Source: a phage. From it: a DNA stretch of 64,000 nt. Below, piece by piece: positions 12,519 to 62,018 of this stretch (the stretch's first letter is position 1; each line of letters opens with the position of its first letter). The stretch is from sequence record PX104378.1. One strand, given 5' to 3'. The position numbers were made by a program, and so were the translations under genes. The notes under the pieces are model-generated. The model worked only from the letters and a program-made list of their open reading frames with translations. It searched no databases and was not told where the DNA came from.

Positions 12519-12529
12519 GTTTAAAATCA

Positions 12530-12853: not shown

Positions 12854-12894
12854 AATTTTATTACCTCTTCAAATCAATACAGTTTAATGATGAA

Positions 12895-13708: not shown

Positions 13709-13729
13709 AATATAATCCTCACATATTAA

Positions 13730-15583: not shown

Positions 15584-15603
15584 ATTACCCCCAACGACAA
15601 AAG

Positions 15604-15621
15604 GCGGGGAACTAGCCCCGC
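15604..15621 (-). terminator. rho-independent terminator after rnlA
   Basis: GCGGGG-AACTAG-CCCCGC hairpin followed by UUUUGUCG. Confidence 0.55.
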
Positions 15622-15627
15622 TTATTA

Positions 15628-16797: not shown

Positions 16798-17194
16798 AAT
16801 TTGTGTTCCATTCCGGTTTAAATTTGGTGATCAAAACAGGTTCTTCGATATCGGCAGTGCTTATAATATCTTTACCCGTTGGATTCTCTATGTACAACTC
16901 AAAGCACTGGCGGTAATAGAATGTTACTGTCTTCCCTTCCTCTAGCGCCTTATGAATATTCTTACTCTTGCGAGTATCCGCCGTTGGTGTCTGTCTGTTA
17001 ATGCTAGTCCGGTAATAGTTGATCCGCTTTCTGAGATTAACAGTCTGACCAATATATACCAGTTCATCATCAACCACAATAGCGTAAAGAACATTTAAAC
17101 GGTTCTTCTGAGGCGGTAGAATCACATCACCATCTTTACACTCTAAACATGAATATTTAACGAATCCATAGTTTTCTATTAGCTCATTAATCAT
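16733..17194 (-). CDS. denA: endonuclease II (GIY-YIG)
   Basis: VLYAIVVDDELVYIGQTVNLRKRINYYRTSINR nearly identical to recalled T4 DenA; 3' end overlaps rnlA start by 65 nt. Confidence 0.8.
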   Translation of the reverse strand: MINELIENYGFVKYSCLECKDGDVILPPQKNRLNVLYAIVVDDELVYIGQTVNLRKRINYYRTSINRQTPTADTRKSKNIHKALEEGKTVTFYYRQCFELYIENPTGKDIISTADIEEPVLITKFKPEWNTNYVNKRKQQKNFSIVQKSDGTM

Positions 17195-17218
17195 TATCCT
17201 TTCCTCACGTCACAACAA

Positions 17219-17238
17219 AGGCGGGATTTCTCCCGCCC
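17219..17238 (-). terminator. rho-independent terminator
   Basis: GGCGGGA-TTTC-TCCCGCC hairpin followed by UUUGUUGUG. Confidence 0.55.
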
Positions 17239-17244
17239 ACCTTA

Positions 17245-17643
17245 TTAACTTTCCAGAATATCGCGAGCTTCGTTACGCTCCTTGATGATTTTCAGGACAA
17301 ATTCCAGTTTTTCTTTGTTCAGTGTTCCGTTTTCCATTGCTTCTTTGACGGTAAACACTCCGCCACCTTGCCCGTATACAGTGACAGTGATTTCACCTAA
17401 CATCGTGGTATGAAAACCGCCAATTTTCGGTGATTCGAAAGAAACAATTACCTCGCGGACAGTATTACCGTCGTTGATTTCTGAGAGGGTAATGTCGTTT
17501 TTGTAGGCGGTTGCTTTAACCATACGGATCAGCATAGTCTGATCTGGGGAGATGGTCATTTTGTCCATTGCATGTTGCAATGCAGCGTAACCGAAAACTT
17601 TAACGAAATCCAGAACGTCTTTGCGAGTTTGAAATTTAATCAT
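17245..17643 (-). CDS. hypothetical protein (132 aa)
   Basis: ORF behind cassette leader TAAGGAGTATCAAGATG. Confidence 0.55.
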   Translation of the reverse strand: MIKFQTRKDVLDFVKVFGYAALQHAMDKMTISPDQTMLIRMVKATAYKNDITLSEINDGNTVREVIVSFESPKIGGFHTTMLGEITVTVYGQGGGVFTVKEAMENGTLNKEKLEFVLKIIKERNEARDILES

Positions 17644-17684
17644 CTTGATACTCCTTAGTAAGTTAGTTTCGTTTCGATGGGGGT

Positions 17685-17713
17685 ATATTACTACCCCCGT
17701 TCCATGCTGTCAA
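17685..17713 (-). promoter_or_regulatory. sigma70-type early promoter cassette
   Basis: TTGACA-N17-TAATAT with GGGGGTAGTAATATACCCCC stem-loop. Confidence 0.5.
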
Positions 17714-17932
17714 CTACTTTTTAATGACAAGTTCGAATTTTGCTACCTTGCGTCCTCTTTTATTGAAAGCAACCCACGGACGGTTTTCAATGTAGAACAA
17801 TTCTTCGCCAATAAAGAATACTGGCTGATTGTAAAGGCGACCCATCAGGTCACGCTGGCGAATGGTAGTAGATTCGTATACTTCTCCTACTACAAAGTGT
17901 TTGCTGATAGAGTCGGTGCAAGTAAATTTCAT
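17714..17932 (-). CDS. hypothetical protein (72 aa)
   Basis: ORF behind cassette leader AGGAGAATCAAAATG. Confidence 0.5.
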   Translation of the reverse strand: MKFTCTDSISKHFVVGEVYESTTIRQRDLMGRLYNQPVFFIGEELFYIENRPWVAFNKRGRKVAKFELVIKK

Positions 17933-17965
17933 TTTGATTCTCCTTTGTTTCTTTTCGATGGGGGT

Positions 17966-17994
17966 ATATTACTACCCCCGTTATTCAGTGTCAA
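17966..17994 (-). promoter_or_regulatory. sigma70-type early promoter cassette
   Basis: TTGACA-N17-TAATAT; near-duplicate of the cassette at 17685. Confidence 0.5.
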
Positions 17995-18001
17995 CTACTT
18001 T

Positions 18002-18220
18002 TTACTTGTTGTATTCATTCCACCATTGGGTGAGCTTATCAATTATTTTTGTGTTTCTATCCAACTTATCCCACCGTTTTCGAGGGTTTATCAACCGGAA
18101 TAGGTAAGGTGTACTTGTTAAGTGGACTCGGTCAATATAGTGATTGATGTACTGTTTTTCGATTCTAAGTTTCATCTTTTTACGATGAAAATATGCAATG
18201 ACTTGTTCTTCTGTTTCCAT
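18002..18220 (-). CDS. hypothetical protein (72 aa)
   Basis: ORF with GGAGGAA SD. Confidence 0.5.
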   Translation of the reverse strand: METEEQVIAYFHRKKMKLRIEKQYINHYIDRVHLTSTPYLFRLINPRKRWDKLDRNTKIIDKLTQWWNEYNK

Positions 18221-18244
18221 ATGTTCCTCCGTTTCGATGTGCGT

Positions 18245-18273
18245 ATTATGCTATGGCAAGATCCTATTGTCAA
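18245..18273 (-). promoter_or_regulatory. sigma70-type early promoter cassette
   Basis: TTGACA-N17-CATAAT on minus strand. Confidence 0.5.
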
Positions 18274-18320
18274 CACCCAATAACAAAAAAGTCGCCACTA
18301 TGGGCGACTTTGAACAAACA

Positions 18321-18797
18321 TTAATCATGACCGTGATTTGCAATATCCGCTCGCGTCGTATCTTTGTGATTTCCTACGTCAAAGACACGATAACCATTTT
18401 CACGCAAAACTTTAATCACTTCTGGGTTATCTTCGAATACTCCCACCACTTCATCTTTATCAAATGATTTAATTACTTCCAGTTTGATGTGATAGTCTTT
18501 ACGGGAATCGGTACGGCCTCTCATAAAGATTTTATCAAAACACACCCCGTTAGAAATTAACCAATCCAGTGTTTCCATGTAAGCATGTGAACTTCGTCCG
18601 GTGAGGATGTAAATCAAATGCCCGTTGTCGGAAAGAGCATTGATAACACGGATTACATCGTAAATGGGGGAATCTCCCCCACATGCCTTGTTATATTCGA
18701 TCCATGACTCGACTTTATCAAGATTTTCGGTTGGCATCTTTGCTAGTCGATGCGTTGGATCTGTGATCGTAAAATCTAAATCGACAAAATATATCAT
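18321..18797 (-). CDS. HAD-superfamily phosphatase-like protein
   Basis: 158 aa; N-terminal FVDLDFTIT (DxDxT), later LTGRS and DNPEV; resembles the Pnk phosphatase domain; 4-nt overlap with nrdB. Confidence 0.55.
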   Translation of the reverse strand: MIYFVDLDFTITDPTHRLAKMPTENLDKVESWIEYNKACGGDSPIYDVIRVINALSDNGHLIYILTGRSSHAYMETLDWLISNGVCFDKIFMRGRTDSRKDYHIKLEVIKSFDKDEVVGVFEDNPEVIKVLRENGYRVFDVGNHKDTTRADIANHGHD

Positions 18798-19954
18798 AGA
18801 TATTTCCCGAATCGGTTGTAGTCGTCGTCTGTTAAATCGGTATTAACCTGAGATACCAGATACATGATCTCTACTTCTTGCGCCGCGTTTTGAACTTCGT
18901 CAGAGTTTAACCACTTACGCATCCACGGTAAAGGATGACGACGAACACTAAACGGGCTTTTCAGTCCGGCAGCACGCATACGGGAATCTGCCAGGTATTC
19001 TACATAGGTTTTCAGAATTTCCGGTGACAGATTAGGAATTGCCCCCATTGCGAATAAGTGATCTACCCATTCTTTTTCTTGCTCGACAACATCCAGAAAG
19101 ATTTTCGTTGCTTCGTCTTCAAGTTCTTCCGCAATCTGTTTCCACTCATCACCATCAGCCCCCGTTTGCCATTGACGAATAATGTATTGTGTGCCTTTTA
19201 AGTGAAGTTGTTCATCACGCGCAATAAATTTCATGATCTTCGCGTTGCCTTCCAGTAAACCACGTTCGGCAAAGCTGAAAGTACACGCAAAGGACACATA
19301 AAAACGGATTGCTTCCAGTGCATTGACGCAGTGTGCACACAGATAAATCGAAGCCATCAGATCTCGTTTTGTATCTTCAAAAAATCTTCTTGCATCATCT
19401 AATGCTGTCGGGTCGTCTCGTTCTTCCCAATAGCGGAGATCTTCTTTTGCGTTCTCATACTTACGAATCCAATAGAGAACATCATCATAATATTGCCCGA
19501 TAGATTCTGCTCGCTTCATGATAGCCGGGTTATCGATGATCTGGTCGAACTCACTAGCCGGATCAATGAAACAGTTACGCATAATGTGAGTATAACTGCG
19601 GCTATGAATCGTTTCGCTGAATGTCCATGTTTGCAACCATGTATCAAGAGTCGGATCGGATACAATTGGACCAAATGCTGCGGACGGTGCGCGACCTTGA
19701 ATAGAATCAAGTAATGTCTGATACTTCAAGTTTTCTGTGAAGAAACGCTTTTCAACGTCACCCATATTAAGATATTGAATACGGTCGGTTGCAAGTGAAA
19801 TTTCTTCGGGACGCCAGAAAAATGACAGAGATTTTTCGATCAGTTCTTCAAATACTTGATGACGCTGAATATCATAGCGAGCGATACCCAACCCACTACC
19901 CAGAAACATCGGTTCGTTCATAATATCAACATGTTCGCGGTTAAATACGCTCAT
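18794..19954 (-). CDS. nrdB: ribonucleotide reductase beta subunit
   Basis: 386 aa; uninterrupted ORF, so no intron as in T4 nrdB; class Ia R2 size and sequence character. Confidence 0.85.
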   Translation of the reverse strand: MSVFNREHVDIMNEPMFLGSGLGIARYDIQRHQVFEELIEKSLSFFWRPEEISLATDRIQYLNMGDVEKRFFTENLKYQTLLDSIQGRAPSAAFGPIVSDPTLDTWLQTWTFSETIHSRSYTHIMRNCFIDPASEFDQIIDNPAIMKRAESIGQYYDDVLYWIRKYENAKEDLRYWEERDDPTALDDARRFFEDTKRDLMASIYLCAHCVNALEAIRFYVSFACTFSFAERGLLEGNAKIMKFIARDEQLHLKGTQYIIRQWQTGADGDEWKQIAEELEDEATKIFLDVVEQEKEWVDHLFAMGAIPNLSPEILKTYVEYLADSRMRAAGLKSPFSVRRHPLPWMRKWLNSDEVQNAAQEVEIMYLVSQVNTDLTDDDYNRFGKYL

Positions 19955-19969
19955 TAATTCACCTCACTA

Positions 19970-20137
19970 TCACTTTTTAACACAAAAGAACTTAGTATTT
20001 CTGTTTATTTCGTTATCCTGTTGCAATTCCTGCACGGCTTCAAAACAACTTTGATGTGATGAAAACTCCACGCTGGTAACAGTTCCTTTATTATATAAGC
20101 CTACGCTAACGGAAAGCAATAACCATATTGTGGCCAT
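19970..20137 (-). CDS. small protein with hydrophobic N-terminus (55 aa), paralog A
   Basis: MATIWLLLSVSVGLYNKG...; 1-nt stop/start overlap with paralog B. Confidence 0.4.
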   Translation of the reverse strand: MATIWLLLSVSVGLYNKGTVTSVEFSSHQSCFEAVQELQQDNEINRNTKFFCVKK

Positions 20138-20310
20138 TAGTTCACCTTCTGCTTTTCAACACAGTACAGATTCATAAAGCGTTTATTGTCTTCGCGGATA
20201 ATCTCGCGAGCTTTAACGCAATCCTGCTTTGTTGCAAATTCAATGCTTGACATATTTCCGTAATTATACATTGAATTGCTGATTGCAATCAATAACCATA
20301 CAGTAGCCAT
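20137..20310 (-). CDS. small protein with hydrophobic N-terminus (57 aa), paralog B
   Basis: MATVWLLIAISNSMYNYG...; shares MAT-WLL, S-EF and C..K pattern with paralog A. Confidence 0.4.
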   Translation of the reverse strand: MATVWLLIAISNSMYNYGNMSSIEFATKQDCVKAREIIREDNKRFMNLYCVEKQKVN

Positions 20311-20477
20311 TATTCGACAACCTCAAAGCATTTATCATCAGGAAGAATAGCCCATTCTACGCCGTATTCATCCTCAACGTAGTAGCAAGCCCCATCATGT
20401 CGAGCATCATATACATCACCGACAACAAAGCTATCGGCTAGTTCAAAATCTACAGCAACACATTTTAATTTGATCAT
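20310..20477 (-). CDS. small hypothetical protein (55 aa)
   Basis: start at internal ATG (MIKLKC) with GAGGA SD. Confidence 0.45.
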   Translation of the reverse strand: MIKLKCVAVDFELADSFVVGDVYDARHDGACYYVEDEYGVEWAILPDDKCFEVVE

Positions 20478-20508
20478 AATAAAATCCTCACTTGTTTTTG
20501 ATGGTTGA

Positions 20509-20537
20509 ATTATAGCGGGGATTTCTCCCCGCGTCAA
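20509..20537 (-). promoter_or_regulatory. sigma70-type early promoter cassette
   Basis: TTGACG-CGGGGAGAAATCCCCGC(17)-TATAAT immediately after nrdA stop. Confidence 0.55.
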
Positions 20538-20545
20538 CACTTATT

Positions 20546-22789
20546 TTACAGCTTGCAAGATGAACATTCGCTAGCGTCTTCCGTACCATCAGCACCATCA
20601 CGCACGTTAGCGTAATACAGTGTCTTGAGGCCGTAATATTGAGCAAACAACATATCATCTAATACATCAGCAATATCGACTTTACCAGTCTTATAAGTGC
20701 TTGGATCGTAGGATGTATTGGAACTAATCGCCTGATCTACAAACTTCTGCATGATCGCTGCCAGTGTCAGATAAGGCTTGTTACCTTTCTTGATCAGTGT
20801 CCAAAGCAGGTCAATAACATCAGCATTATTCTCTACGTTCGGAATAACCTGATTAAATTGCCCTTCTTTCGATCCTTTAACCGATACAATCCCGCGAGGC
20901 GGTTCAATACCGTTTGTACTGTTAGACACCTGAGAAGACGACTCACAAGGCATCAGCGCCGAAAGCGTACTGTTACGAATGCCATATTTTTTCAGGTCTT
21001 CGCGCAGTTCTTCCCAATCCATCTCATACACCGGGTCAACCAGTTCATCTACTGTCTTTTTGTACCAGTCGATAGGCAGTTCACCGCGTCCATAACGTGT
21101 TTCGTGTATCAGTTCGCAAGCACCTTTCTCTTTAGCCAGTTGCACACTAGCCTTAATCAGAGCATATTGCAAGCGTTCAAACGTTTTATGCGTAAACTCG
21201 TTAGCGTCTTCATATGTGAAGAAATTATCCGCCAGATATGATGCAAAGTTAGTCACACCAACACCCAGAGAGCGACGTTTTTTGGCTGTCAGAGCTTGTT
21301 CTACAGGATAATCCTGATAATCTAACAGGTTGTCAAGTGCACGCACCATAACCATAGCGATCCGCTCTACTTCTTCCATATTTTCGATATCGAAATTACC
21401 TAAAACATATGCTGCCAAAGTACATAGGCTGATCTCTGAATCATCACGACCCATCGGTTTTGTCGGCAGAGCAATTTCACAACACAGGTTAGATTGTTTA
21501 ATCGGTGCTACATTACGAATAAACGCCCCGTGATTGTTCATGTTGTCTGTGAACGCTGGATAGATTCGACCAGTGTTAAAACGTTCAATTGCCACCGCTA
21601 AAAACAGGTCTTCGGCTTTAACACGAGTTTTACGAACACTCGGATCTTTTTCCAGTTTTTCGTAAAGCTGGCGGAAACCTTCCTCATCTCGGAAGTACAG
21701 ATCCCACAACAAGCCACCCGCAACATCTGGACTAAACAGAGTAATGTAATCCCGTTTAAGGAATCGCTCTACCATCAGGTTATTAATCTGTACGCCGTAG
21801 TCAAGATGGCGAATGCGGTTATCTTCCACGCCCTTATTGTTCTTTAACACAATCAGACTTTCAAACTCTAAATGCCACATTGGGTAATAGAGTGTCGCTG
21901 CCCCGCCACGAATACCGCCTTGTGAGCATGACTTAACGGCAGTCTGAAAATGTTTCCAGAATGGGATAACGCCAGTATGACGAACTTCACCATGCCCGAT
22001 CTTAGATCCTTCCGCGCGAATCATACCAGCATTGATACCGATGCCAGCACGCTTGCTAATATACTTGATGATTGCATTTGCGGTTTCATTAATACCCTGC
22101 AATGAATCATCAGATTCGATCACCACACACGAACTAAATTGTCGTGTTGGAGTACGCACACCAGCCATAATCGGAGTAGGCAGAGAGATTTGCTTATTCG
22201 CAACAGCATTATAAAAATCAATCACATGTTCAAGTCGATTTTCTGTCTCTTCTTGATGCAAGCACATACCGATCAGCATATACGCAAATTGCGGTGTTTC
22301 GATGATTTTCTTAGTGCTGCGATCCTGAACAAGATACTTCTCTTTTAACTGCATTGCACCCGCATAGGTCATTTTAAAATCAAGTTTATGGTCGATGAAT
22401 TTCTCCAGATATTCCACTTCTTCACGGGAATATTTTTGCAGAATTTCGCGATCATATTTTCCGGTTGCAATATTACGCTCAATATGGCTATAAAAATCAA
22501 TAGGTTGGAATTGACCGTATACTGATTTACGAAGTGCGAACATTGCAAGGTTACTTGCTACATATTGATAATCAGGTGTTTCTACAGTAATGTTATCTGC
22601 GGCGACCTTAATCAATACTTTCTGGATATCATTGGTAGACATACCTTCTGTCAGAAGTGGTTCAACCATATCAAACAATTCATATGGATCAACGTTATGA
22701 CCTTCGGCTGCCGCTTCCAGAATTTTCATTACTTTTTCTTTTTCAAACGGAACAGTCAGACCGGAAGACTTAACAACATTTTTAATCAT
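20546..22789 (-). CDS. nrdA: ribonucleotide reductase alpha subunit
   Basis: 747 aa (T4 NrdA about 754); N-terminal ATP-cone; C-terminal Cys pair in SECSSCKL. Confidence 0.9.
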   Translation of the reverse strand: MIKNVVKSSGLTVPFEKEKVMKILEAAAEGHNVDPYELFDMVEPLLTEGMSTNDIQKVLIKVAADNITVETPDYQYVASNLAMFALRKSVYGQFQPIDFYSHIERNIATGKYDREILQKYSREEVEYLEKFIDHKLDFKMTYAGAMQLKEKYLVQDRSTKKIIETPQFAYMLIGMCLHQEETENRLEHVIDFYNAVANKQISLPTPIMAGVRTPTRQFSSCVVIESDDSLQGINETANAIIKYISKRAGIGINAGMIRAEGSKIGHGEVRHTGVIPFWKHFQTAVKSCSQGGIRGGAATLYYPMWHLEFESLIVLKNNKGVEDNRIRHLDYGVQINNLMVERFLKRDYITLFSPDVAGGLLWDLYFRDEEGFRQLYEKLEKDPSVRKTRVKAEDLFLAVAIERFNTGRIYPAFTDNMNNHGAFIRNVAPIKQSNLCCEIALPTKPMGRDDSEISLCTLAAYVLGNFDIENMEEVERIAMVMVRALDNLLDYQDYPVEQALTAKKRRSLGVGVTNFASYLADNFFTYEDANEFTHKTFERLQYALIKASVQLAKEKGACELIHETRYGRGELPIDWYKKTVDELVDPVYEMDWEELREDLKKYGIRNSTLSALMPCESSSQVSNSTNGIEPPRGIVSVKGSKEGQFNQVIPNVENNADVIDLLWTLIKKGNKPYLTLAAIMQKFVDQAISSNTSYDPSTYKTGKVDIADVLDDMLFAQYYGLKTLYYANVRDGADGTEDASECSSCKL

Positions 22790-22859
22790 ATTACCTCACT
22801 TCATATTTTAGCAGGAACAAGTTTATCCTCCATATTGGGGGGCTTTCGCCCCCTTTTGT

Positions 22860-24092
22860 TTATACTGCCATTTGAGCGGTGATTGCTGGATGGCTTTGAT
22901 AGTTGTGAATTTTAAAGTCTTTCGGAGTCTTTGTCAATACCTCATCTAAAGATTTAAATTCCGGCAACTCAATTGTTGGTTTATCAAACGGAACACGGCT
23001 TAACTGTTCAATAACTTGATCAAAATGGTTTTTGTAAATGTGAGTATCTCCACCAGAGAAAATCAGTTCTCCTACCTCAAGATCACACATTTTCGCTATG
23101 ATGTGAGTTAACAGCGCATAGCTGGCAACATTAAAGGGCAAGCCCAAAAAGCTGTCTACGCTTCGCTGAAACCACATACAAGACAGTTTACCTTCATTGA
23201 CATAGAATTGCACGAACGGATGACATACACCTAATACAGCATTATGTGTTCCTTGTACGTTCCATGAGTCAATAATGATCCGGCGATCCGTTGGATTGTT
23301 TTTAATTTGTTCAATCACGTTTTGTAATTGGTCTTCCCAAATCTTCGGGCGATAGACATATTCTTCATCGTCTTTAGTGCTCGATGTGTCTACGTCCATA
23401 CTAGCAAAAATCGTGGTATCTGGTGCTAAAATATCCCCACCCAGATAATCACTATCAAGTAGATAACCGAAATAACCATCATCTACCCATTCCTGGAATC
23501 CCCACAAGCAATATGCATCATTAACAAAATTAGATTGAGTCTTCCAGTGGTCTGCTACTAAGAATAGATTATATTCAGAATCAAACTCTTCATAACGCAT
23601 ACCACGCCAGATAGCACATAAACGGTCTTCTGTGTCGTTGGTTGGCGTAAAGTCTTCTACCCACGGGTGTTTAAATGTATGTGTATATTTGCTCTTAACG
23701 CGCTTAATTTTGATTTCACCGTGTGGGTGAATCGGTTTGCGTCGCCACGCCATACCATACATATTGCCGACATTATAACCATTGAATCGCAAAGGATTCT
23801 TTTCTTTCATATCAAGACAGTTGCCGCGCCAAATGTCGAAGGCTTCTTCGTCAAACTTACCGCGTGTAATTTCCTGTAAGCGACGGCGGTCAAGTGATCC
23901 CTCCATAAACCATATCAACTCGCCAATTACAGAGGCTGTAGCCATCTTTTTAGTGGTCAGTAAGGGGAAACCCTTTCTTAAATCAATTCGCATCTCTGCG
24001 CCGAATTTAGAGAGCGTACCTACCCCCGTGCGGTCTTCACGAGGCCAGCCATTATCAAGAACATCACGCAACAGTTTCAAATATTCTTTCAT
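22860..24092 (-). CDS. td: thymidylate synthase with large internal insertion
   Basis: 410 aa; TS motifs DRTGVGT, TTKK, DRRIIIDSWN, VCHPFVQFYV, GLPFNVASYALL; about 115 extra residues between the YG.AWRR and QLQNVIEQIK blocks. Confidence 0.8.
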   Translation of the reverse strand: MKEYLKLLRDVLDNGWPREDRTGVGTLSKFGAEMRIDLRKGFPLLTTKKMATASVIGELIWFMEGSLDRRRLQEITRGKFDEEAFDIWRGNCLDMKEKNPLRFNGYNVGNMYGMAWRRKPIHPHGEIKIKRVKSKYTHTFKHPWVEDFTPTNDTEDRLCAIWRGMRYEEFDSEYNLFLVADHWKTQSNFVNDAYCLWGFQEWVDDGYFGYLLDSDYLGGDILAPDTTIFASMDVDTSSTKDDEEYVYRPKIWEDQLQNVIEQIKNNPTDRRIIIDSWNVQGTHNAVLGVCHPFVQFYVNEGKLSCMWFQRSVDSFLGLPFNVASYALLTHIIAKMCDLEVGELIFSGGDTHIYKNHFDQVIEQLSRVPFDKPTIELPEFKSLDEVLTKTPKDFKIHNYQSHPAITAQMAV

Positions 24093-24333
24093 CCCACATC
24101 ACCTTTTTCTTATTGATTGCTTTCTTACGCAGTTTTGCGACTGTCTCGTCAATATCGATAAAGACAACGCCAGGATCGAATACAGTAACAGGTCTTGAAA
24201 TGTCGCTATTTTCCTGTACTGGAAGCCATGACGCTTTAGCTTCATCATAGAGATATTGTAACCCGTAATAATCTACGGCTACTGCGTAGTTTTCACTGGT
24301 AGCTGACCATAATTGAATAATGGTTATTTTCAT
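24064..24333 (-). CDS. hypothetical protein (89 aa)
   Basis: ORF overlapping td start by 29 nt; start taken at MKITIIQ. Confidence 0.4.
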   Translation of the reverse strand: MKITIIQLWSATSENYAVAVDYYGLQYLYDEAKASWLPVQENSDISRPVTVFDPGVVFIDIDETVAKLRKKAINKKKVMWDERIFETVA

Positions 24334-24425
24334 TATTGTTCCCGTCCACAATGTAAACACCGACTACCAGCAAACATCAAAGATTCACCACAATGTTTGC
24401 ACTCATAATCTGTCAGAATTTTCAT
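24333..24425 (-). CDS. tiny zinc-ribbon peptide (30 aa)
   Basis: MKILTDYECKHCGESLMFAGSRCLHCGREQ (two CxxC pairs); 1-nt overlaps with both neighbours; speculative. Confidence 0.3.
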   Translation of the reverse strand: MKILTDYECKHCGESLMFAGSRCLHCGREQ

Positions 24426-24426
24426 G

Positions 24427-24996
24427 TTACGCCTTCTTACGTTCCAAAATTTGCTCACTGATCAGGTAATTATCAAGGAAGTAATTATGTTCTTCTTTGG
24501 TTACAAAGTCAAAATATAATTCCTGAATCATTTCCTTAGAGATACCAACATCATATTCAAATGGATCGTTGATTCCTGAACGTTGAACATACGTTAACAC
24601 AATACGGTCCGAAAAGTCAACCGCTTTTTCAATCAGGGAAGGTCCACCGATAACACTTACCAAACCTTGCGTTTTCTCCAGGACTTTTAACAGATCCTTT
24701 AATTCAATTCCAGTATACACATCTGGTTGGTCGCCGTTTTTGGCTTTCGGTGTCGGCTTGCTGGCATCGGTACTAATAACCACATTCACACGACCTTCCA
24801 GTGCTTTAGGAAGACTTTCAAAGGTATTACGTCCCATTACAACCGCCGCAAGACCAACATCTCCCATAGTGCGCATTTTAAAGTTTTCCATATCTTTTTT
24901 GATTGGACGACCCCACGGTAAACCGCCTTTAAAACCAAACGCCCAATTTTCATCTGACATTTTAGTGTCACCAATCGCAAATACACATTGAATCAT
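24427..24996 (-). CDS. frd: dihydrofolate reductase
   Basis: 189 aa; GGLPWGRPIKKDMENFK, VVMGRNTFESLP, VIGGPSLIEKA (DHFR motifs). Confidence 0.85.
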   Translation of the reverse strand: MIQCVFAIGDTKMSDENWAFGFKGGLPWGRPIKKDMENFKMRTMGDVGLAAVVMGRNTFESLPKALEGRVNVVISTDASKPTPKAKNGDQPDVYTGIELKDLLKVLEKTQGLVSVIGGPSLIEKAVDFSDRIVLTYVQRSGINDPFEYDVGISKEMIQELYFDFVTKEEHNYFLDNYLISEQILERKKA

Positions 24997-25009
24997 AATA
25001 TATCTCCTA

Positions 25010-28674: not shown

Positions 28675-29274
28675 TTAACCCTCTTTAGTCATTAATTGAA
28701 AACCACGTTCAGCTTTTGAGATTTCGCTAGGACTTAAATCGTCACCCACATATTCTAGCATCATTTCTCGGATAATGTCAAGTGCTTTTTCATCACCTGA
28801 TTTTAACTCGAACTCAAGTTCATAATGAGCAGTGTCGCCCAATCCTTCGCCTACTTTGCCATAATAGAAAGTGTCTTTGCACATTTCCACTATACCGCAA
28901 CCCATATCTAGAGTCAATGACTTGCGATATGTCATTACTTGCATTATTGTAGTGATATAGTCGGAGTTTACCCCTAGACTATCAATAAAATGGACGAACT
29001 CATCCCAATTTGAAAATGTCATTTCCTCGCGGTTGAATAGTCCAGATTCATTATCACCCATTTTGACCATGATCTCTGATTTTCGACAGTCAAGTCGTGC
29101 ATAAATTCCTTTTTGACGTAGCGCATGATCTTCGGTATCATAATAAAATTCGTGTTTTAGAATGTTATCACGGTCTACGAGATTGTACCCGTCATACATT
29201 GCTACCCACAAATCACAGATGGTTTCGACGCCAATTTGTGAGTGTGCATAGTATTTTAATTCAAGTTCTTTCAT
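28675..29274 (-). CDS. CYTH-domain (triphosphate tunnel metalloenzyme) protein
   Basis: 199 aa; N-terminal ELELKYY (CYTH EIExK-type motif) and later YELEFELK acidic strand. Confidence 0.5.
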   Translation of the reverse strand: MKELELKYYAHSQIGVETICDLWVAMYDGYNLVDRDNILKHEFYYDTEDHALRQKGIYARLDCRKSEIMVKMGDNESGLFNREEMTFSNWDEFVHFIDSLGVNSDYITTIMQVMTYRKSLTLDMGCGIVEMCKDTFYYGKVGEGLGDTAHYELEFELKSGDEKALDIIREMMLEYVGDDLSPSEISKAERGFQLMTKEG

Positions 29275-54657: not shown

Positions 54658-55326
54658 TTATCCCCTTTGTTTCTTAACTGAATTTGGATCTGGATTTTCT
54701 GGTAGGTCTTCCAGACCCATAGCATAACGTTGTGCATAGATTAGCATAAGAATATCGCGAGCGCAATCATGAATTGCATCATGCGCGATAAATCCGTCTA
54801 GCGTACCCATTGGTAACGGACACTCACACATCCCGCGATGCATCAATGTACGCTCAATGGCGGTGCGAACATCTCGGATGTTCCAGAATCGCACAGGTTC
54901 AAGGCTGAACGTCTCTCGTGTATTGTGTGCACGGCGGATCATATCAACTAGTAACGGAATATCAAACGCATTACCGCGTGACCACATTACTGATTTAACC
55001 GGATCTACTCCTACAGATTCACAGAATGCGTTAAAACGCGCTAAACCTTCTTTAGTTGATACTTCCGTACCATTTGTAATTAATTGCTTTCTCATGCCTT
55101 CTGAGGCGGTATTCTTCCACCATTCAACCACACCATGATCAAAGATCCTTACACCTTTCTGGGAAGGAATATCAAATTTTACCAGAAAGGAATTGTCAAC
55201 CAGTTCTTTAAAAGTCGGTGGATTATGTGGGTCTTCTTTAAATCCGATTGCCGCCATATTGATCACCGCCCCATCAGGCGGATAACCTAAACTTTCAAAG
55301 TCAATCATTAAATCCATTGGAAGCAT
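54658..55326 (-). CDS. dexA: exonuclease A (DnaQ-like 3'-5' exonuclease)
   Basis: MIDFESLG (Exo I DxE), EWWKN, FDIPLLVD, TLDGFIAHDAIHDCARDI, RYAMGLED; position between 39 and dda. Confidence 0.75.
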   Translation of the reverse strand: MLPMDLMIDFESLGYPPDGAVINMAAIGFKEDPHNPPTFKELVDNSFLVKFDIPSQKGVRIFDHGVVEWWKNTASEGMRKQLITNGTEVSTKEGLARFNAFCESVGVDPVKSVMWSRGNAFDIPLLVDMIRRAHNTRETFSLEPVRFWNIRDVRTAIERTLMHRGMCECPLPMGTLDGFIAHDAIHDCARDILMLIYAQRYAMGLEDLPENPDPNSVKKQRG

Positions 55327-55327
55327 T

Positions 55328-55570
55328 TTAAATATCCTCCGCGATGTGTCGGAATAACTCCAGATCGTTTTTATCCAGAATGAAACCGCTACAATCAATA
55401 ATTCCTTTACCGTAATTATCGGTTAATAGTCGGTCCGTTGCCATGTATGCGCGTACCTTGTGGTTAAAATTCATTACATGTTGTGTATAGTCACAATGAA
55501 TCTTTTGACGGTTCCACGCGACAATTGATTCAAGATGAATTACCTTAGAGATATCGTTAATAACAACCAT
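55328..55570 (-). CDS. hypothetical protein (80 aa)
   Basis: ORF between dda and dexA. Confidence 0.45.
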   Translation of the reverse strand: MVVINDISKVIHLESIVAWNRQKIHCDYTQHVMNFNHKVRAYMATDRLLTDNYGKGIIDCSGFILDKNDLELFRHIAEDI

Positions 55571-55571
55571 A

Positions 55572-55739
55572 TCAAAAACCTCGCTTAGTGAAATGTTCGA
55601 TCATTTTATTGATACATGCAGCTTCACTATCGCCGGACACGTTCCAGCCGTACAGACCCCATCTAAAGCACATGGTAACAGTTCCATTGTGACGGCTTAC
55701 CGTCACATCATTAAATTCTGGGATACTTCGCATAATCAT
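55572..55739 (-). CDS. small hypothetical protein (55 aa)
   Basis: MIMRSIPEFNDVTVSRHNG...; GAGGAAA SD. Confidence 0.35.
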   Translation of the reverse strand: MIMRSIPEFNDVTVSRHNGTVTMCFRWGLYGWNVSGDSEAACINKMIEHFTKRGF

Positions 55740-55749
55740 AATAATTTCC

Positions 55750-57141
55750 TCAAATATAGTCTACTCGATACCGCGCACGGGTAACACCCACATATAATAA
55801 CTGCATTGCCAATTCAAAGTCAACATTGTCTGTACACATGCAAGGAGTATACAGGAACACGCGGTCTACGCTGATCCCTTGTGACTTATGAATGGTGCAA
55901 GCTGGTAATGCTTTTACATTCAAGAACATACGTTTCATCGTCCAGAAGGAATCCCAATCTGGTTTAAATTTTGGATTCTCTTTCTTCATTTCGCGATATT
56001 GTCCGGCGACCGTATTCAGATAGATAGAGAAAATGTTCTTCTGACGTTGTTCTGTCAGAATGTTGATTTCTACTAAATCCGGTTTATCTGTAGTGATTCC
56101 GACTGCATCTAAACCGACTTTCTGATTTAGGATTTCTTTGTCTTCGTCATCATCGACGCTTTCCACTTTCAGAGTATAGCCTAAAACTGGTTGCGGATCT
56201 ACCCCCGTGCAACGTAATGTAAATTCACGCGGGATGACCTCTTTAACTCGGATCATCTCACCATTGTTAAAAATAACATTGGGAATCTTCTTCCCGCGTT
56301 CATCTCGCATATATTCGATCAACGGTTCCTGAGTAACCAGAATTTCATCTACAATCACTGGTTCATCGGTGTTATAAACGCGCTTACGTACAATTTCATT
56401 TAGTTTTTCGACGCTCTTGTTAGTGTAAGCCAGAATACGGTTTTCTAGAAGGTCTTCCGGCGTTTTAACGGTTTCGAAATAATGCTTCATAAACTCCGGC
56501 AGAGTTGAGCTATGGAATACACCCTCGTTACCGCACTGCTTTTCGAATACCCATTTACCGTTACGGACAGCGGTCGCCACATCAATTATTGGCGCATTAG
56601 ATCGTTTAATCTCTGTAAGTTCTACATTCTGGAATCTTTCATCTGTGAAGAAAGGAGAGATCGACGTTGCACCGCTCGGATCAACTGGTCGTAACTGGTA
56701 CAGATCACCCACGGCAATAATAACAATTCGACCGTTGATACTCTTCATGAGAATATCAAATAGTTTCTTATCGACCATACTCGCTTCATCAACAATGATG
56801 ATCTGAACATCATCTAGTTTAGGAGTATCCTTTTGCTCAAATACTTGAGTATCTTCATAGTTGGTCGGGTTTAGTCGCAGTAGTGCATGTAAAGTAAATG
56901 CTTGACGACCTACCGCCTTACTCAAAACTTTTTTAGCCTGGTGGGTAGGCGTTGCCAAAACCACACCAGTTACACCACGGCGGACCATTTCCTGGACAAT
57001 GAATTTCATCATTGCGGTTTTACCAGTACCCGCCGCACCACGGACAGTTGTATGCTTCTTTTGTTCAATGCGTTTCATTAGAACATCAAAAGCATGTTTT
57101 TGTCCGTCTGTCAACATATCGAAAGTTAATACTCTGCTCAT
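55750..57141 (-). CDS. dda: Dda DNA helicase (SF1B)
   Basis: 463 aa; Walker A GAAGTGKT, DEASMVD, KRSNAPIIDVATAVRNGKW, LYVGVTRARY match recalled T4 Dda. Confidence 0.9.
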   Translation of the reverse strand: MSRVLTFDMLTDGQKHAFDVLMKRIEQKKHTTVRGAAGTGKTAMMKFIVQEMVRRGVTGVVLATPTHQAKKVLSKAVGRQAFTLHALLRLNPTNYEDTQVFEQKDTPKLDDVQIIIVDEASMVDKKLFDILMKSINGRIVIIAVGDLYQLRPVDPSGATSISPFFTDERFQNVELTEIKRSNAPIIDVATAVRNGKWVFEKQCGNEGVFHSSTLPEFMKHYFETVKTPEDLLENRILAYTNKSVEKLNEIVRKRVYNTDEPVIVDEILVTQEPLIEYMRDERGKKIPNVIFNNGEMIRVKEVIPREFTLRCTGVDPQPVLGYTLKVESVDDDEDKEILNQKVGLDAVGITTDKPDLVEINILTEQRQKNIFSIYLNTVAGQYREMKKENPKFKPDWDSFWTMKRMFLNVKALPACTIHKSQGISVDRVFLYTPCMCTDNVDFELAMQLLYVGVTRARYRVDYI

Positions 57142-57455
57142 TATCCTAAAATCCTCACCTTGCGAACACAGATAGTATTGAGTTCTCGCCGTACCCGTTC
57201 TTTTTCATATTCAGGAATTTTGTATTCTATACCATCCCGAACAATTTCAGAAGACCGGATTATACCAAATTTTCGTTTAGGCACAACCTTGTATTTCGGT
57301 TCACCTGCCAATAGACTCTCACAATAATCTATCTGATCACACATTGACGCTAACGCAGCATCATGAGTTTCGCAAGTTAGGACGCGACCTTTCGCGTCCA
57401 CTGAGTATTGAAAGAATCCGTCTTTATCACGATAACATACAGCAAATACATGCAT
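57141..57455 (-). CDS. hypothetical protein (104 aa)
   Basis: ORF; start/stop abut neighbours. Confidence 0.5.
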   Translation of the reverse strand: MHVFAVCYRDKDGFFQYSVDAKGRVLTCETHDAALASMCDQIDYCESLLAGEPKYKVVPKRKFGIIRSSEIVRDGIEYKIPEYEKERVRRELNTICVRKVRILG

Positions 57456-58210
57456 TATAAACCTACCTTCGCTTTCATCAATTCAATCCACGACGCATCA
57501 ATCGGAAGCCCGTATTTCACGCGTTCTTTTTGTGCTGGCGTTAAGTTCTCATACTTAGAAAGAGATTCAATCAAAACGCTGGTATATTTTAGCACGATTT
57601 CGGTATTGTTTGCAATAGCCTTGAGTTTTTCCTCTTTCTTGTTGATTTCGCTAAGGGCTTGCTTGAGATCTGCAATTTTCTGATAACGTTCTTCCATACG
57701 GAAGAGAGTATTTTTAATCGCTCGCTCGGCTGCCTCTGCTTTCTCCGGTTCGTTGTGCTTTTTGTGGCGCTCGATTGCTAATTTCTTTTCTTCGATTGCC
57801 ATTTCCTGATTTTTGATGCGATTCTCGTTAAGTTCGATCCACTCGATGTACTTTGCACGTAGGGCGATCTCATCATCAGAAAGTTTACCGTTAGTTCCTA
57901 GTTCCTGGATCTCTTTAAGAGATTCGATAGTGTGATTGCCACGGAAAGAATTGTATTTCAGTTTAACCGGAATTACATTGCCATCAACATATCCCAGATT
58001 GCAATCAATGCGCTCTAAGGAGAGTCCGTCATCACCTTCACCGAAAGCCTCACCTGAATATGCGCAATGAGTCTGACGGTAAATGTTACGCACAGTGACT
58101 AAGCTCATAGAGAAGTCTTTGTTGCGACGTGAAGCGCCAGCCATGATAGAGTTCAGACGGAAAACAACCAGCGCCAATTCTTCGTTAGATTTAAAAGCAA
58201 ACAGTTTCAT
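57455..58210 (-). CDS. hypothetical coiled-coil protein (251 aa), srd-position
   Basis: Cys-containing N-terminal domain, Lys/Glu-rich central helix; sits where T4 carries srd; not recognised. Confidence 0.5.
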   Translation of the reverse strand: MKLFAFKSNEELALVVFRLNSIMAGASRRNKDFSMSLVTVRNIYRQTHCAYSGEAFGEGDDGLSLERIDCNLGYVDGNVIPVKLKYNSFRGNHTIESLKEIQELGTNGKLSDDEIALRAKYIEWIELNENRIKNQEMAIEEKKLAIERHKKHNEPEKAEAAERAIKNTLFRMEERYQKIADLKQALSEINKKEEKLKAIANNTEIVLKYTSVLIESLSKYENLTPAQKERVKYGLPIDASWIELMKAKVGL

Positions 58211-58271
58211 AATTGATTCTCCTTAGTTGGTATGTGTGTATTATTGTCTATCTGGTTTGTGCTGTCAACAC

Positions 58272-58775
58272 TTAAATTAAAGAAAATTTGTAAATCTCTA
58301 TCAGGTCGCCGTTACATGCGTAAACTTCCTCGATCTCATCAAGGATCATGGTCGTCCCTGTCTTGTATATGCACTCGCGCTCATCCGCCAACATAGCATA
58401 CAAAGACAGTCGAGTAGTCGGATTGTCATACTCTTTAGACACCACTCGATCAATAGCATGTTCGTAATAATTCATGCAAGGCTTGGTAGGTTTTATTGCA
58501 ATAATCTTTCCTGTTGCATAAACATCGGTTGCAAAGTCCTCTGCTGTTGATTGCAGTGGCGTAAAGCTCATAGGACGCTCTACAACGAAAGAATCGCCTA
58601 CAATTAAGGTATCCAGCTTACGGCCTTCTCTTTTGCTCACACCGCGATACAAGGCTTCATGATGCACTAACCGTTCAGTCTTTTCAATCAATCCATTAAG
58701 GATCGACATATCGATATTTTCTTTAGAGTTCATCACTTCATCAATGATGTTAAGTTCTTCTGGTGTAAATTGCAT
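58272..58775 (-). CDS. modA: ModA/ModB-like ADP-ribosyltransferase
   Basis: R-S-ExE pattern (LYRGV ... PLQSTAED ... ADERECIY); between dda and 56 as in T4; start at MQFTPEE with GGAGG SD. Confidence 0.6.
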   Translation of the reverse strand: MQFTPEELNIIDEVMNSKENIDMSILNGLIEKTERLVHHEALYRGVSKREGRKLDTLIVGDSFVVERPMSFTPLQSTAEDFATDVYATGKIIAIKPTKPCMNYYEHAIDRVVSKEYDNPTTRLSLYAMLADERECIYKTGTTMILDEIEEVYACNGDLIEIYKFSLI

Positions 58776-58808
58776 AATAAAAAGCCTCCAATCTTTCGAC
58801 GGGAGGCA

Positions 58809-58836
58809 TAATAAAACCATTATAGAGTAGTGTCAA
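58809..58836 (-). promoter_or_regulatory. sigma70-type early promoter
   Basis: TTGACA-N16-TATTAT on minus strand. Confidence 0.4.
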
Positions 58837-58843
58837 CTAATTT

Positions 58844-59368
58844 TTAGTAGCCGCGTTCTTGACGGGCGAAGTTTTCAGCATTTTTCAGATAGTACAGCTT
58901 GAAGATATCCTTAGCGGTTAAACCTAAGCCCAGCATTTTAATCAGCACAAAATGCCAGATATCGATCAATTCCATCGCAATTTCGGTTTTATCGTCATCT
59001 GACAGATCAGCAAATTTACGCGCTCGTGCTTCGCCGTGGTTCTTCTTCCACACTTTAGTAATTGCGCTTGCATCTTTGCCATTTGACATGCCACCCAGGG
59101 CAACATAAAGTTCTCGTGTCTCGTCGTCGATTGCGTCATCCCATAGCTTCATCCAATCAAGGATCTCCCCGCAAGTTTCCAGCTTATCAGGATGCGGCAC
59201 CCACTCAAATTTATCAGCTAGTGCGACCTGTAAGCCTTTTTGCATATCTAACATTACTTGCAGCGGATCTTTGCCGCTAGTGATTGCCTCGGAATACGCA
59301 ATACCAGCTTTAGACATAGTTTCGTCGCTAACCAGACCAGCACAAGAATTAAATTCTGACATATTCAC
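58844..59368 (-). CDS. 56: dCTP pyrophosphatase (dCTPase)
   Basis: 174 aa; DPLQVMLDMQ, HPDKLET, IFKLYYLKNAENFARQERGY nearly identical to recalled T4 gp56. Confidence 0.9.
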   Translation of the reverse strand: MNMSEFNSCAGLVSDETMSKAGIAYSEAITSGKDPLQVMLDMQKGLQVALADKFEWVPHPDKLETCGEILDWMKLWDDAIDDETRELYVALGGMSNGKDASAITKVWKKNHGEARARKFADLSDDDKTEIAMELIDIWHFVLIKMLGLGLTAKDIFKLYYLKNAENFARQERGY

Positions 59369-59376
59369 CTCATTAA

Positions 59377-60405
59377 TTAAAATTTACAATATTTCATAAA
59401 CCGCATTTTAGCCATCAGACCTTGTACGGTGTTCTCTTTGATATATTCCATGATCTGGTCGCGTGTAGCGCCCTCGTCCTGAATCATGGCGTTAACGTCT
59501 TTAGAATGCCACGGACAACGATCCCACAAAACAATCTTTTCCCCTGCATTGATAAACTTTTCCAGTCGGTGCATTGTATCGGCTGACCGTGGTTCCGCAT
59601 CAAGTACAAACACTCGCTGGTCTGGGAAAGGGATTTCATCTAATCCCAAAGTACCGCCAGTAATTGCACACCCGTTATCAATAAACAATGAATCGATCGG
59701 ACCTTCTAAGAAATACACTGGCTTGCTCGGATCGGCGCGTTCAAGACCATAGACCTTACTCGCTAACTCGTGAGTTTTAATCGTCATATATTTGGTCTTT
59801 CCGTAATCCTTTCTCAATGCTCGCCCCTGAATGGATTCTATCTTGTTCTCACGGTTAAAGATAGGAATCACTAAACGCGGTTCAGGTTGCGGATTCTTAA
59901 AAGTATCAGCCTTAATGTGATTTGCTACCTTTTGCCATTCTCTCGTGAAATACAGAAGATCCCATTTATCGTGGGGAATGCAACGATCACTGACATACTT
60001 TATTATAGGATGATTAGCCGGAAGAGTATCTAATCTCTCGCAGAAAGGCAATGTTTGCACTTTCTTAATCTCCGGCTTTTCTACCTTTTTCAGTGGCTTG
60101 ACCGTGGTGTTCTTGTGGTCGCCTTGTTCCTTCCGTCTCTCCATAAGCCATTCCCTGAATAGGTCCGGCTTATACTGTTTGAGAAATTCACCTAACGGCT
60201 GATTGTAGTTACAGTTGAAACATCCGGCTCGCAAACTATCTTTATAGGTATAGATACGGAATCGCGCTTGAGTATGATTTTTCTTTGAGTCACCGCAGAT
60301 CGGACAACTACAGACCAGCGTAAATGAGCTAGTATGCAACCGTTTAAAATTTCGTTCGCCGTATATGGCTTTTTCCGCTATTTCATAATCTGCGTAGTAA
60401 ATCAT
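59377..60405 (-). CDS. 61: DNA primase
   Basis: 342 aa (same as T4 gp61); zinc ribbon CPICGDSK ... CFNCNY; EPRLVIPI, LEGPIDSLFI, QGLMAKMR. Confidence 0.9.
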   Translation of the reverse strand: MIYYADYEIAEKAIYGERNFKRLHTSSFTLVCSCPICGDSKKNHTQARFRIYTYKDSLRAGCFNCNYNQPLGEFLKQYKPDLFREWLMERRKEQGDHKNTTVKPLKKVEKPEIKKVQTLPFCERLDTLPANHPIIKYVSDRCIPHDKWDLLYFTREWQKVANHIKADTFKNPQPEPRLVIPIFNRENKIESIQGRALRKDYGKTKYMTIKTHELASKVYGLERADPSKPVYFLEGPIDSLFIDNGCAITGGTLGLDEIPFPDQRVFVLDAEPRSADTMHRLEKFINAGEKIVLWDRCPWHSKDVNAMIQDEGATRDQIMEYIKENTVQGLMAKMRFMKYCKF

Positions 60406-60414
60406 ATTAACCTC

Positions 60415-60618
60415 TTATAGCTCAAATTTCATGAAAGTTCCCACACTTTCATTTTCATTCTCTCCGTTTTCATCTAAGCCAAATTTATAGACACTACCAT
60501 CTGGCGATGTGTAAGAGAATACACGAAAACGGCCTACCGGATCAAGTTCTGTAAATTCATATTCTTTTCCGGCTTCAAAAAGTGCATATGTGCTTTTAAG
60601 ACATTTCATCGTAATCAT
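60415..60618 (-). CDS. hypothetical protein (67 aa)
   Basis: ORF. Confidence 0.45.
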   Translation of the reverse strand: MITMKCLKSTYALFEAGKEYEFTELDPVGRFRVFSYTSPDGSVYKFGLDENGENENESVGTFMKFEL

Positions 60619-60806
60619 TTAAGCGCCACCGACAACAGAATGAGAACTACACCAACATACATTGTGATCTCGGATAACTTTTCTGTTTTTGTTTTGTGTC
60701 CAGATAATCCGAAAACAACAACACCGATAATAGCGGACAGCAAGCCAACGATAAACATGATGATACTAAGCACCGTCTTTCTCCTTCTTGCGTTTTTCTT
60801 TACCAA
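60615..60806 (-). CDS. small membrane protein, two TM segments (63 aa)
   Basis: LSIIMFIVGLLSAIIGVVVFGL and ITMYVGVVLILLSVAL hydrophobic helices. Confidence 0.5.
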   Translation of the reverse strand: MVKKNARRRKTVLSIIMFIVGLLSAIIGVVVFGLSGHKTKTEKLSEITMYVGVVLILLSVALK

Positions 60807-60938
60807 CTATACTAGGTCCACGATTGGTAATAGATCCGCTCGTTTCCCCTGCTGCGATCTTCTCAGGATTGCCGCCAGCATCGCCAGCGGTCATATCTTC
60901 TTTGAGTTTATTTTCTTCAACAAACTGTTTAAAGCCAA

Positions 60939-61313
60939 TCATAGAATAATCTCTTTTAGTAAGTCAACAATCTGGTCTTTCGTCAGTTTATCCTGATTCT
61001 CTACAATCTTGATAACACAAGCGTTAACATCTTTGCGAGTCACGCGGGAGATCGTTTTAATACGATGAAACGGTTCGTAGAAATATACTGCTTCATTATA
61101 GAGCGCAGCAATTTTTCGACGCATTTGATCTTTATCAGCCAGAAAAACAATTGCAGTTTTCGGATCTACACCAGCCACATCATAAAGTTCGGCGACTCCC
61201 CAGCGTCCTTCCGGTTCAACCATACCAGCATGTTTACCGTTAATAAAGATAAGAATGTCTCCGTTATTTGCGGTTTTAAATGCTACATCTTCCGGTGTAA
61301 TCATATTTTTCAT
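60939..61313 (-). CDS. hypothetical protein (124 aa)
   Basis: ORF. Confidence 0.5.
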   Translation of the reverse strand: MKNMITPEDVAFKTANNGDILIFINGKHAGMVEPEGRWGVAELYDVAGVDPKTAIVFLADKDQMRRKIAALYNEAVYFYEPFHRIKTISRVTRKDVNACVIKIVENQDKLTKDQIVDLLKEIIL

Positions 61314-61332
61314 AATATAGTCTCCTTATAGG

Positions 61333-61968
61333 TCAAGCGAACGTAGAAAGCAAATGTTTTGTTTCTTTCAGTTGTCGTTCAAGATCTTTGCGTTTCTCTT
61401 TAAGTTGCATTTTAGCATTGTTTCGCTGTTTTTCAACATCTTTATCGATGTGCTTAGTCCAATTATCAATATCAGAATAAGTTGGCATACCCAATTCTAA
61501 ACCTAATGCGGTTGGATACAGGGTAACAGTCCATAAACCGCTAATCTTCTTAAATAGGTCATGGTGTAGTGTACTACCTACATCTTCCGGTGTCAACTCT
61601 TTTTCTTCTTTCAGTGGTGGGATCTCGTCATATGGTTCCAGTGCATTTACTTTAATATCAGATACCTCATCAAAGAATCCGCGTACATCCGCAGGAAATA
61701 CACAAGCAATTTCCCAACCGTGATCACGCAGAGAAGTAATATTTTTCACTCCCCCACCATGTGTGATGATTGATGTGACATTGCCATCAAGGTCCACCGA
61801 ATTTACGAGAAATGGCTTATCGTCTGTCAGATCATTATAAAACTGTGCTTCGGCTGTAGTCATCTCCAGAAACAGATCTCGGATCGGACGACCATCAGGT
61901 GCGTTACCTTCCTTGAGAGTATAAAAGCGACTTACGATCCATTTTGGCGGTAAAGCATTAGCGATCAT
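61333..61968 (-). CDS. hypothetical protein (211 aa)
   Basis: ORF with basic coiled-coil C-terminus. Confidence 0.5.
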   Translation of the reverse strand: MIANALPPKWIVSRFYTLKEGNAPDGRPIRDLFLEMTTAEAQFYNDLTDDKPFLVNSVDLDGNVTSIITHGGGVKNITSLRDHGWEIACVFPADVRGFFDEVSDIKVNALEPYDEIPPLKEEKELTPEDVGSTLHHDLFKKISGLWTVTLYPTALGLELGMPTYSDIDNWTKHIDKDVEKQRNNAKMQLKEKRKDLERQLKETKHLLSTFA

Positions 61969-62018
61969 GTTATATCTCCTATCAAATCATTCACCAGCGC
62001 CCCGTAGGGCGCATTTTA

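Follow-up and report, generated by a model that had tools for sequence, protein, structure and literature searches.

The 64,000-nucleotide stretch of phage DNA analysed here (sequence record PX104378.1; hereafter, the window) very probably carries the standard T4-type set of ADP-ribosylation genes: a Mod protein that is an arginine-specific, NAD-dependent mono-ADP-ribosyltransferase (ART) of the R-S-E class, an orthologue and a paralogue of Alt, and a gp30.3 protein that functions in counter-defence. The combination of Alt, Mod, and gp30.3 is the canonical T4-type repertoire, found in T4 itself, and is not special to this phage. All three are already annotated or published, and this exact Mod has been annotated in phage RB49 for about two decades. 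The preliminary description of the window had recorded at least two ARTs, Alt and a Mod-like protein, together with a NADAR-like gene, and had read them as a complete toolkit for writing and erasing ADP-ribosylation. The parts list stands: Alt and Mod both carry intact motifs, the NADAR-like gene is present and encodes a gp30.3 orthologue with a NADAR fold in the model, and an Alt paralogue that had been missed lies at the left edge as a third transferase. The functional synthesis does not stand.

Phage and genomic setting

A megablast search with positions 55000..62000 and 1..25000 of the window matched 77 phage records, nearly all of them Krischvirus, at 95-98% DNA identity; the best matches are Shigella phage JK32 and Escherichia phages UPWr_E1, TB34, and MIZ. 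Judging by this level of identity to Krischvirus genomes, the window comes from the genome of a T4-type phage, namely, an RB49-like Krischvirus of the Straboviridae. The following two features mark the region of interest:

58272..58775 (including the stop codon), minus strand: Mod-family R-S-E mono-ADP-ribosyltransferase gene, 167 aa, starting MQFTPEEL
55750..57141: dda

The gene order 61-56-mod-srd-dda.1-dda is common to the window, RB49, and T4, the latter with extra small genes. The mod gene is located in the early region, with gene 56 (dCTPase) and gene 61 (primase) upstream of it and srd, a dda.1/Y01A homologue, and dda on the other side. In T4, modA and modB fill this slot between gene 56 and srd, two genes as against the single Mod gene of the window phage. 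The RB49 protein annotated as ModB (NP_891585, 'RNA polymerase ADP-ribosylase'), encoded in the same slot, is identical to the window Mod in all 167 amino acids, with no difference at the protein level, and Mod is at least 99% identical in 57 phage records, mostly under the annotations ModA, ModB, or ADP-ribosyltransferase.

Catalytic motifs and family assignment of Mod

Three motifs were located in the Mod sequence:

58641..58652, minus strand: LYRG, residues 42-45; R44 (58644..58646) is the predicted NAD-binding arginine, on strand beta1
58560..58568, minus strand: SFT, residues 70-72, equivalent to the STS motif, with S70 on strand beta2
58374..58382, minus strand: ERE, residues 132-134, the predicted catalytic ExE, just before a beta strand (the ARTT-loop position)

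The R-S-ExE signatures noted previously in Alt and Mod are real, but the bare pattern itself is uninformative: it is matched by 60% of shuffled Mod sequences and 99% of shuffled Alt sequences, and we rejected it as stand-alone evidence. A strict form with spacing limits ([YFW]RG...S.[ST]...E.E) occurs in 0.12% of the Mod shuffles and 0.74% of the Alt shuffles and, among the 422 six-frame ORFs of at least 50 aa in the window, is found in two, Mod and Alt. The weight of the motif evidence for Mod comes from homology rather than from the pattern alone. In an alignment of 25 Mod-family sequences including T4 ModA and ModB, with identities down to 19%, R44, G45, S70, E132, and E134 are invariant, the only other invariant positions being the initiator methionine and one lysine; F71 is nearly invariant. 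In the MAFFT alignment, R44-G45 of Mod correspond to R72-G73 of ModA and R73-G74 of ModB, S70 corresponds to S99 of ModB, and E132-x-E134 correspond to E163/E165 of ModA and E171/E173 of ModB (residue numbers computed from the T4 sequences and cross-checked against PMC10468400). The loss of the catalytic glutamates upon alignment had been named as the observation that would overturn the assignment; the alignment shows both glutamates in place. ModA and ModB are arginine-specific R-S-EXE enzymes, and mutation of R73 abolishes the activity of T4 ModB, so that this residue is catalytically required (PMC10468400).

The similarity to the characterised T4 enzymes is significant in BLASTP comparisons (1.6e-10 to ModB and 3.7e-6 to ModA), and among the PHROGs, Mod matches phrog_832, 'RNA polymerase ADP-ribosylase' (1e-20). 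From 1.84 billion representatives, 25 Mod relatives, among them the T4 ModB-type representative P0016, were retrieved by a full HMMER profile search; a word-indexed homologue search retrieved three proteins only. The Pfam-A scan of Mod yielded only a sub-threshold match to DUF5507 (E 0.13), with a copy of the database that was scanned without the PF26816 model, the one with which Mod homologues are tagged in precomputed database annotation. NCBIfam gave no significant match for any of the four proteins, Mod included, and a sequence search of the PDB gave none for Mod. The family assignment rests on PHROGs, the profile search, the alignment, and the predicted fold.

Predicted structure of Mod

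The AlphaFold2 (AF2) model of Mod is confident (pLDDT 95.1, pTM 0.88), with R44 in strand 42-45, S70 in strand 69-72, and E132-E134 just before strand 135-137. This predicted arrangement (arginine on beta1, serine on beta2, and ExE before beta5) is that of the R-S-E fold (ARTC, cholera-toxin/C3-like). A Foldseek search with the model against the PDB produced 104 matches at E<=0.001 (best E = 5e-7, probability 1.0), and the best 50 of these are all R-S-E ART toxins (Certhrax, CDTa, VIP2, iota Ia, C3, ExoT, and HopU1). Mod resembles bacterial toxins of the C3, iota, VIP2, and Certhrax type in the predicted fold and in the R-S-E catalytic triad, but shares with them only 8-16% identity (TM about 0.5-0.6), and unlike these toxins, it is a much smaller, single-domain phage protein that acts inside the infected cell.

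Placement of Mod relative to ModA and ModB

In BLASTP, the best T4 match of Mod is ModB (33% identity over 113 aa, 44.7 bits), ahead of ModA (23% identity, 32.0 bits); T4 ModA and ModB are more similar to each other (59.7 bits) than either is to the window protein. In a bootstrapped neighbour-joining tree, the window Mod and five homologues of 161-176 aa form a clade of their own (96%), which falls outside the ModB clade (100% bootstrap) and apart from ModA. By this phylogeny, the Krischvirus Mod is a separate clade distinct from both ModA and ModB, a minor new point. 'Mod-like' is, on these comparisons, the right name for the window protein, whereas 'ModB' is a best-hit label only, as is the name of the RB49 protein, which does not come from functional testing.

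T4 ModB (207 aa) belongs to the same family and occupies the same locus, with LYRG and SFT identical and ExE conserved. The window Mod differs from it in having neither the N-terminus of about 30 residues nor the insert before ExE, and in carrying ERE instead of EQE. T4 ModA (200 aa) is of the same family too, and its R, S, and ExE align with those of the window Mod. The two T4 enzymes have different substrates: ModA ADP-ribosylates the alpha subunit of RNA polymerase, whereas ModB ADP-ribosylates and RNAylates S1, L2, EF-Tu, and other proteins. The N-terminal extension of about 30 residues that ModA and ModB possess is missing from Mod and its short homologues alike. Because the identity to the T4 enzymes is only 23-33% and this extension is absent, the targets of the window Mod may differ from those of ModA and ModB. 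A literature search found no biochemical report on any Krischvirus Mod, and a single short Mod lineage could help to map the determinants of target choice and RNAylation.

Translation start and expression signals of mod

The sequence around the mod start contains the following elements:

58808..58836, minus strand: sigma-70-type early-promoter-like site upstream of mod (TTGACA, 17 nt, TATTAT; 11/12 consensus matches)
58784..58807, minus strand: hairpin GCCUCC...GGAGGC followed by U5, directly after the promoter-like site
58240..58268, minus strand: second promoter-like site, in the mod-srd interval (TTGACA, 17 nt, AATAAT; 11/12 matches)

A version of Mod with 182 aa, starting from the ATG at 58820, was considered and rejected. 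We prefer the ORF of 167 aa: a GGAGG Shine-Dalgarno sequence lies ahead of its ATG at 58775, which the RB49 annotation likewise uses as the start codon, whereas the ATG at 58820 lies inside the promoter-like element.

The hairpin at 58784..58807 has a predicted folding energy of -15 kcal/mol (z = -3.6), and none of 200 shuffled sequences folded into an equally stable RNA structure. Its 3' arm is the Shine-Dalgarno sequence of mod. Such an arrangement would affect transcripts of different origin differently: those reading through from gene 56 would end at the hairpin or have the mod ribosome-binding site sequestered, whereas those initiated at the proximal mod promoter would begin within the 5' arm of the hairpin and remain translatable. 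These signals suggest that mod would be transcribed early from its own sigma-70-type promoter. Given the second promoter-like site between mod and srd, these two genes appear to have one early promoter each.

Alt and a third transferase

The region at the left end of the window encodes two proteins of the Alt type:

480..2531, minus strand: Alt orthologue, 683 aa, with a C-terminal R-S-E ART domain (Pfam ADPrib_exo_Tox, 2.3e-9)
1062..1073, minus strand: Alt LYRG motif, residues 487-490
984..992, minus strand: Alt STS motif, residues 514-516
804..812, minus strand: Alt ECE motif, residues 574-576
3..401, minus strand: first 133 codons of a short Alt-type ART, downstream of alt and cut by the left edge of the window

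The Alt orthologue is recognised by its collinearity with T4 Alt over residues 31-681 (BLASTP, 27% identity, 5e-61), with the three motifs aligned, by the C-terminal ADPrib_exo_Tox domain that contains the R, STS, and ExE motifs (37.3 bits against a cut-off of 23.4), and by the match to phrog_802 (8.5e-180). T4 Alt (682 aa) is encoded in the same place, adjoining the baseplate and tail-tube genes, and keeps LYRG, STS, and ExE, but the two proteins are strongly diverged. The T4 enzyme is a capsid-packaged protein that the prohead protease processes and that is injected together with the DNA (PMC10468400).

The 133 residues encoded by 3..401 are 100% identical to the N-terminus of the 277-aa protein JK32_00186 of phage JK32 (locus L005:3910-4743), which belongs to phrog_15144 (4.5e-195). 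The catalytic half lies beyond the window edge; the full JK32 protein contains LYRG, STS, and ECE and is 37% identical to the catalytic region of Alt. The same alt paralogue has been described previously for RB49 (ORF183c; PMC1524935). At the corresponding position, T4 retains only the relics alt.-1 and alt.-2, in contrast to the intact 277-aa paralogue of JK32. Judging from these gene contents, the number of R-S-E transferases in this phage is probably three, as in T4, but divided into two of the Alt type and one of the Mod type. No further ART or NADAR genes were detected among the 422 six-frame ORFs of at least 50 aa with the family HMMs and the strict motif, and there are no macro, Nudix, or ARH annotations in the corresponding stretch of two annotated relatives.

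Adjoining alt is a variable island (2883..4625, minus strand) that phage MIZ4 lacks and JK32 carries in a partly different form. Its contents are a protein consisting of a DUF262/GmrSD N-terminal domain alone (172 aa, Pfam 4e-20), a 112-aa ORF (phrog_2993), and a 238-aa DNA-methyltransferase-like protein (phrog_757, 1e-90). This gene content suggests a possible cassette for anti-restriction or for competition between phages.

The NADAR-like gene encodes a gp30.3 orthologue

The NADAR-like gene is the following:

11814..12293, minus strand: gp30.3/AdfN orthologue, a phage-type NADAR (Phage_30_3) and predicted DNA ADP-ribosyl-guanine glycohydrolase, 159 aa

The protein is 39% identical to T4 gp30.3 (9e-31) and matches the Pfam family Phage_30_3 (2.2e-38; 131.7 bits against a cut-off of 36), with NADAR at 0.021. 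The AF2 model has a pLDDT of 94.2, and its only confident Foldseek matches in the PDB are YbiA of E. coli (2b3w; E 4.7e-6, TM 0.67) and PnNADAR (8bau), the Phytophthora NADAR bound to ADP-ribose. The NADAR fold of the orthologue is thus confirmed at the level of the predicted model. A PDB sequence match to a D-alanine carrier-protein ligase (E 3.7e-4) was dismissed as spurious, given that the fold search returned NADAR structures only. T4 gp30.3 shares the Phage_30_3 family, the NADAR fold, the catalytic glutamate, and the phage-type histidine, and its gene likewise adjoins the ligase gene 30. In the window, the gene and the 3' end of the DNA ligase gene overlap; the arrangement differs from the T4 locus in that the two genes directly abut, with 30.1 and 30.2 absent.

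The catalytic glutamate and the phage-specific histidine are known features of these NADARs (PMC11825919, PMC11125620), and the respective residues, E37 (E36 in T4) and H122 in the last strand, are invariant in 13 homologues. The conserved phosphate-binding lysine (K43 in T4; K95 in the NADAR of E. coli C7) is replaced by arginine in the window protein (R44, 12162..12164), a second minor new point. Arginine is present at this position in its closest, 69%-identical relative too, and lysine is found in 11 of the 13 homologues. The K95R mutant of the E. coli C7 NADAR keeps its activity in vitro but no longer rescues cells from DarT1 in vivo (PMC11543638). As the residues go, the lysine-to-arginine change is conservative, and the orthologue has probably retained activity. 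This natural variant mirrors the mutant that separates activity in vitro from activity in vivo, which makes it a lead for specialists.

The function of the T4 protein, renamed AdfN, has been shown experimentally: its deletion stops plaquing of T4 and T2 on cells carrying DarTG1, and purified AdfN strips ADP-ribose from DarT1-modified DNA (PMC11825919). In an independent study, the T4 phage NADAR hydrolysed guanine-ADP-ribose but not thymine-ADP-ribose (PMC11125620).

Functional interpretation

By homology, R44 and S70 of Mod would hold NAD+, and E132-x-E134 would catalyse the transfer of ADP-ribose. The likely acceptors, by analogy with T4, would be arginines of host proteins involved in transcription and translation, such as the RNA polymerase alpha subunit modified by ModA or S1, EF-Tu, and other proteins modified by ModB. 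Alt would travel in the capsid and be injected along with the DNA, as in T4. The gp30.3 orthologue, again by analogy, would most likely remove ADP-ribose that a host toxin of the DarT1 type places on guanines of the phage DNA. Its role is, accordingly to the T4 precedent, most likely counter-defence and not the reversal of the protein marks made by the phage itself.

Under the write-and-erase proposal of the preliminary description, gp30.3 would reverse the Alt and Mod marks of the same phage, for example, limiting self-modification or timing the marks. All the components of such a cycle do co-occur in one genome; arginine-ADP-ribose and N2-guanine-ADP-ribose, as we infer, are both N-glycosides on amidine-type nitrogens; and the full activity of T4 AdfN depends on an as yet unidentified phage factor (PMC11825919). 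Nevertheless, we consider the proposal very improbable and the claim of a complete toolkit unsupported, because the writers target arginines of proteins, whereas the eraser family targets guanine-ADP-ribose in DNA modified by host toxins. Host-protein arginines are the acceptors for T4 Alt, ModA, and ModB (PMC10468400); T4 gp30.3 and other NADARs have been demonstrated to act on ADP-ribosyl-guanine in DNA (PMC11825919, PMC11125620), and the deletion of gp30.3 sensitises T4 and T2 to DarTG1 (PMC11825919). The literature search found no report of a NADAR being tried or active on arginine-ADP-ribosylated proteins. Nor are the genes linked: apart from its overlap with the ligase gene, gp30.3 is separated from alt by about 9.3 kb with more than 20 intervening ORFs and from mod by about 46 kb. 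Cognate writer and eraser pairs in ADP-ribosylation include DarT-DarG and DraT-DraG; the same-operon linkage expected of such a pair is not seen for gp30.3 with either alt or mod. Furthermore, in tblastn searches at E<=1e-5, homologues of gp30.3 were found in more phage records than those of Alt (1510 vs 1222, and 272 vs 163 among Klebsiella phages), a contrast that is indicative only.

Two other readings concern Mod itself. There is, in our estimate, a minimal chance that Mod is a nucleic-acid ART like pierisin and ScARP, guanine-modifying members of the R-S-E clade, that marks host DNA or RNA while gp30.3 shields the phage DNA. ScARP, an ARTC-type enzyme, produces guanine-ADP-ribose that a phage NADAR hydrolyses in vitro (PMC11125620), and the placement of the window Mod in a clade distinct from ModA and ModB would leave room for such a substrate; however, ExE is the form described for arginine-specific ARTs such as ModA and ModB (PMC10468400), the closest characterised relatives of Mod modify proteins, and the best structural matches are protein-modifying toxins. 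That the ORF is a decayed remnant of mod, encoding a pseudoenzyme, is hardly credible. Mod is, indeed, 33-40 residues shorter than T4 ModA and ModB, without some 30 N-terminal residues, and has no above-threshold Pfam match, but all its catalytic positions are invariant, the short form recurs in a clade of homologues with 161-176 aa and identities as low as 38%, the sequence is at least 99% conserved in the 57 phage genomes, and the predicted fold is compact and confident. A further scenario, which we regard as highly unlikely, combines a third-lineage Mod that has both activities or other targets (perhaps, nucleic acids) with a NADAR that, through the lysine-to-arginine change, erases the R-S-E marks of the phage itself, instead of or besides the DarT1 marks of the host. 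If true, this would amount to a genuine phage-internal write/erase cycle.

With arginine-specific Mod, Alt, and its paralogue as writers and gp30.3 as counter-defence being the preferred explanation, the window provides a correction of broader use: when a T4-type phage carries a NADAR next to ARTs, the NADAR should be taken for anti-DarT counter-defence and not for an eraser of Alt and Mod marks.

Other genes in the window

Two further genes encode candidate nucleotide- or RNA-end-processing proteins, judging by their domains, that are unrelated to Mod, Alt, or gp30.3:

28675..29274, minus strand: CYTH-domain protein, 199 aa (Pfam 1.3e-6), between RNase H and dsbA
18321..18797, minus strand: HAD/PNKP-phosphatase-like protein, 158 aa (3e-13), adjoining nrdB
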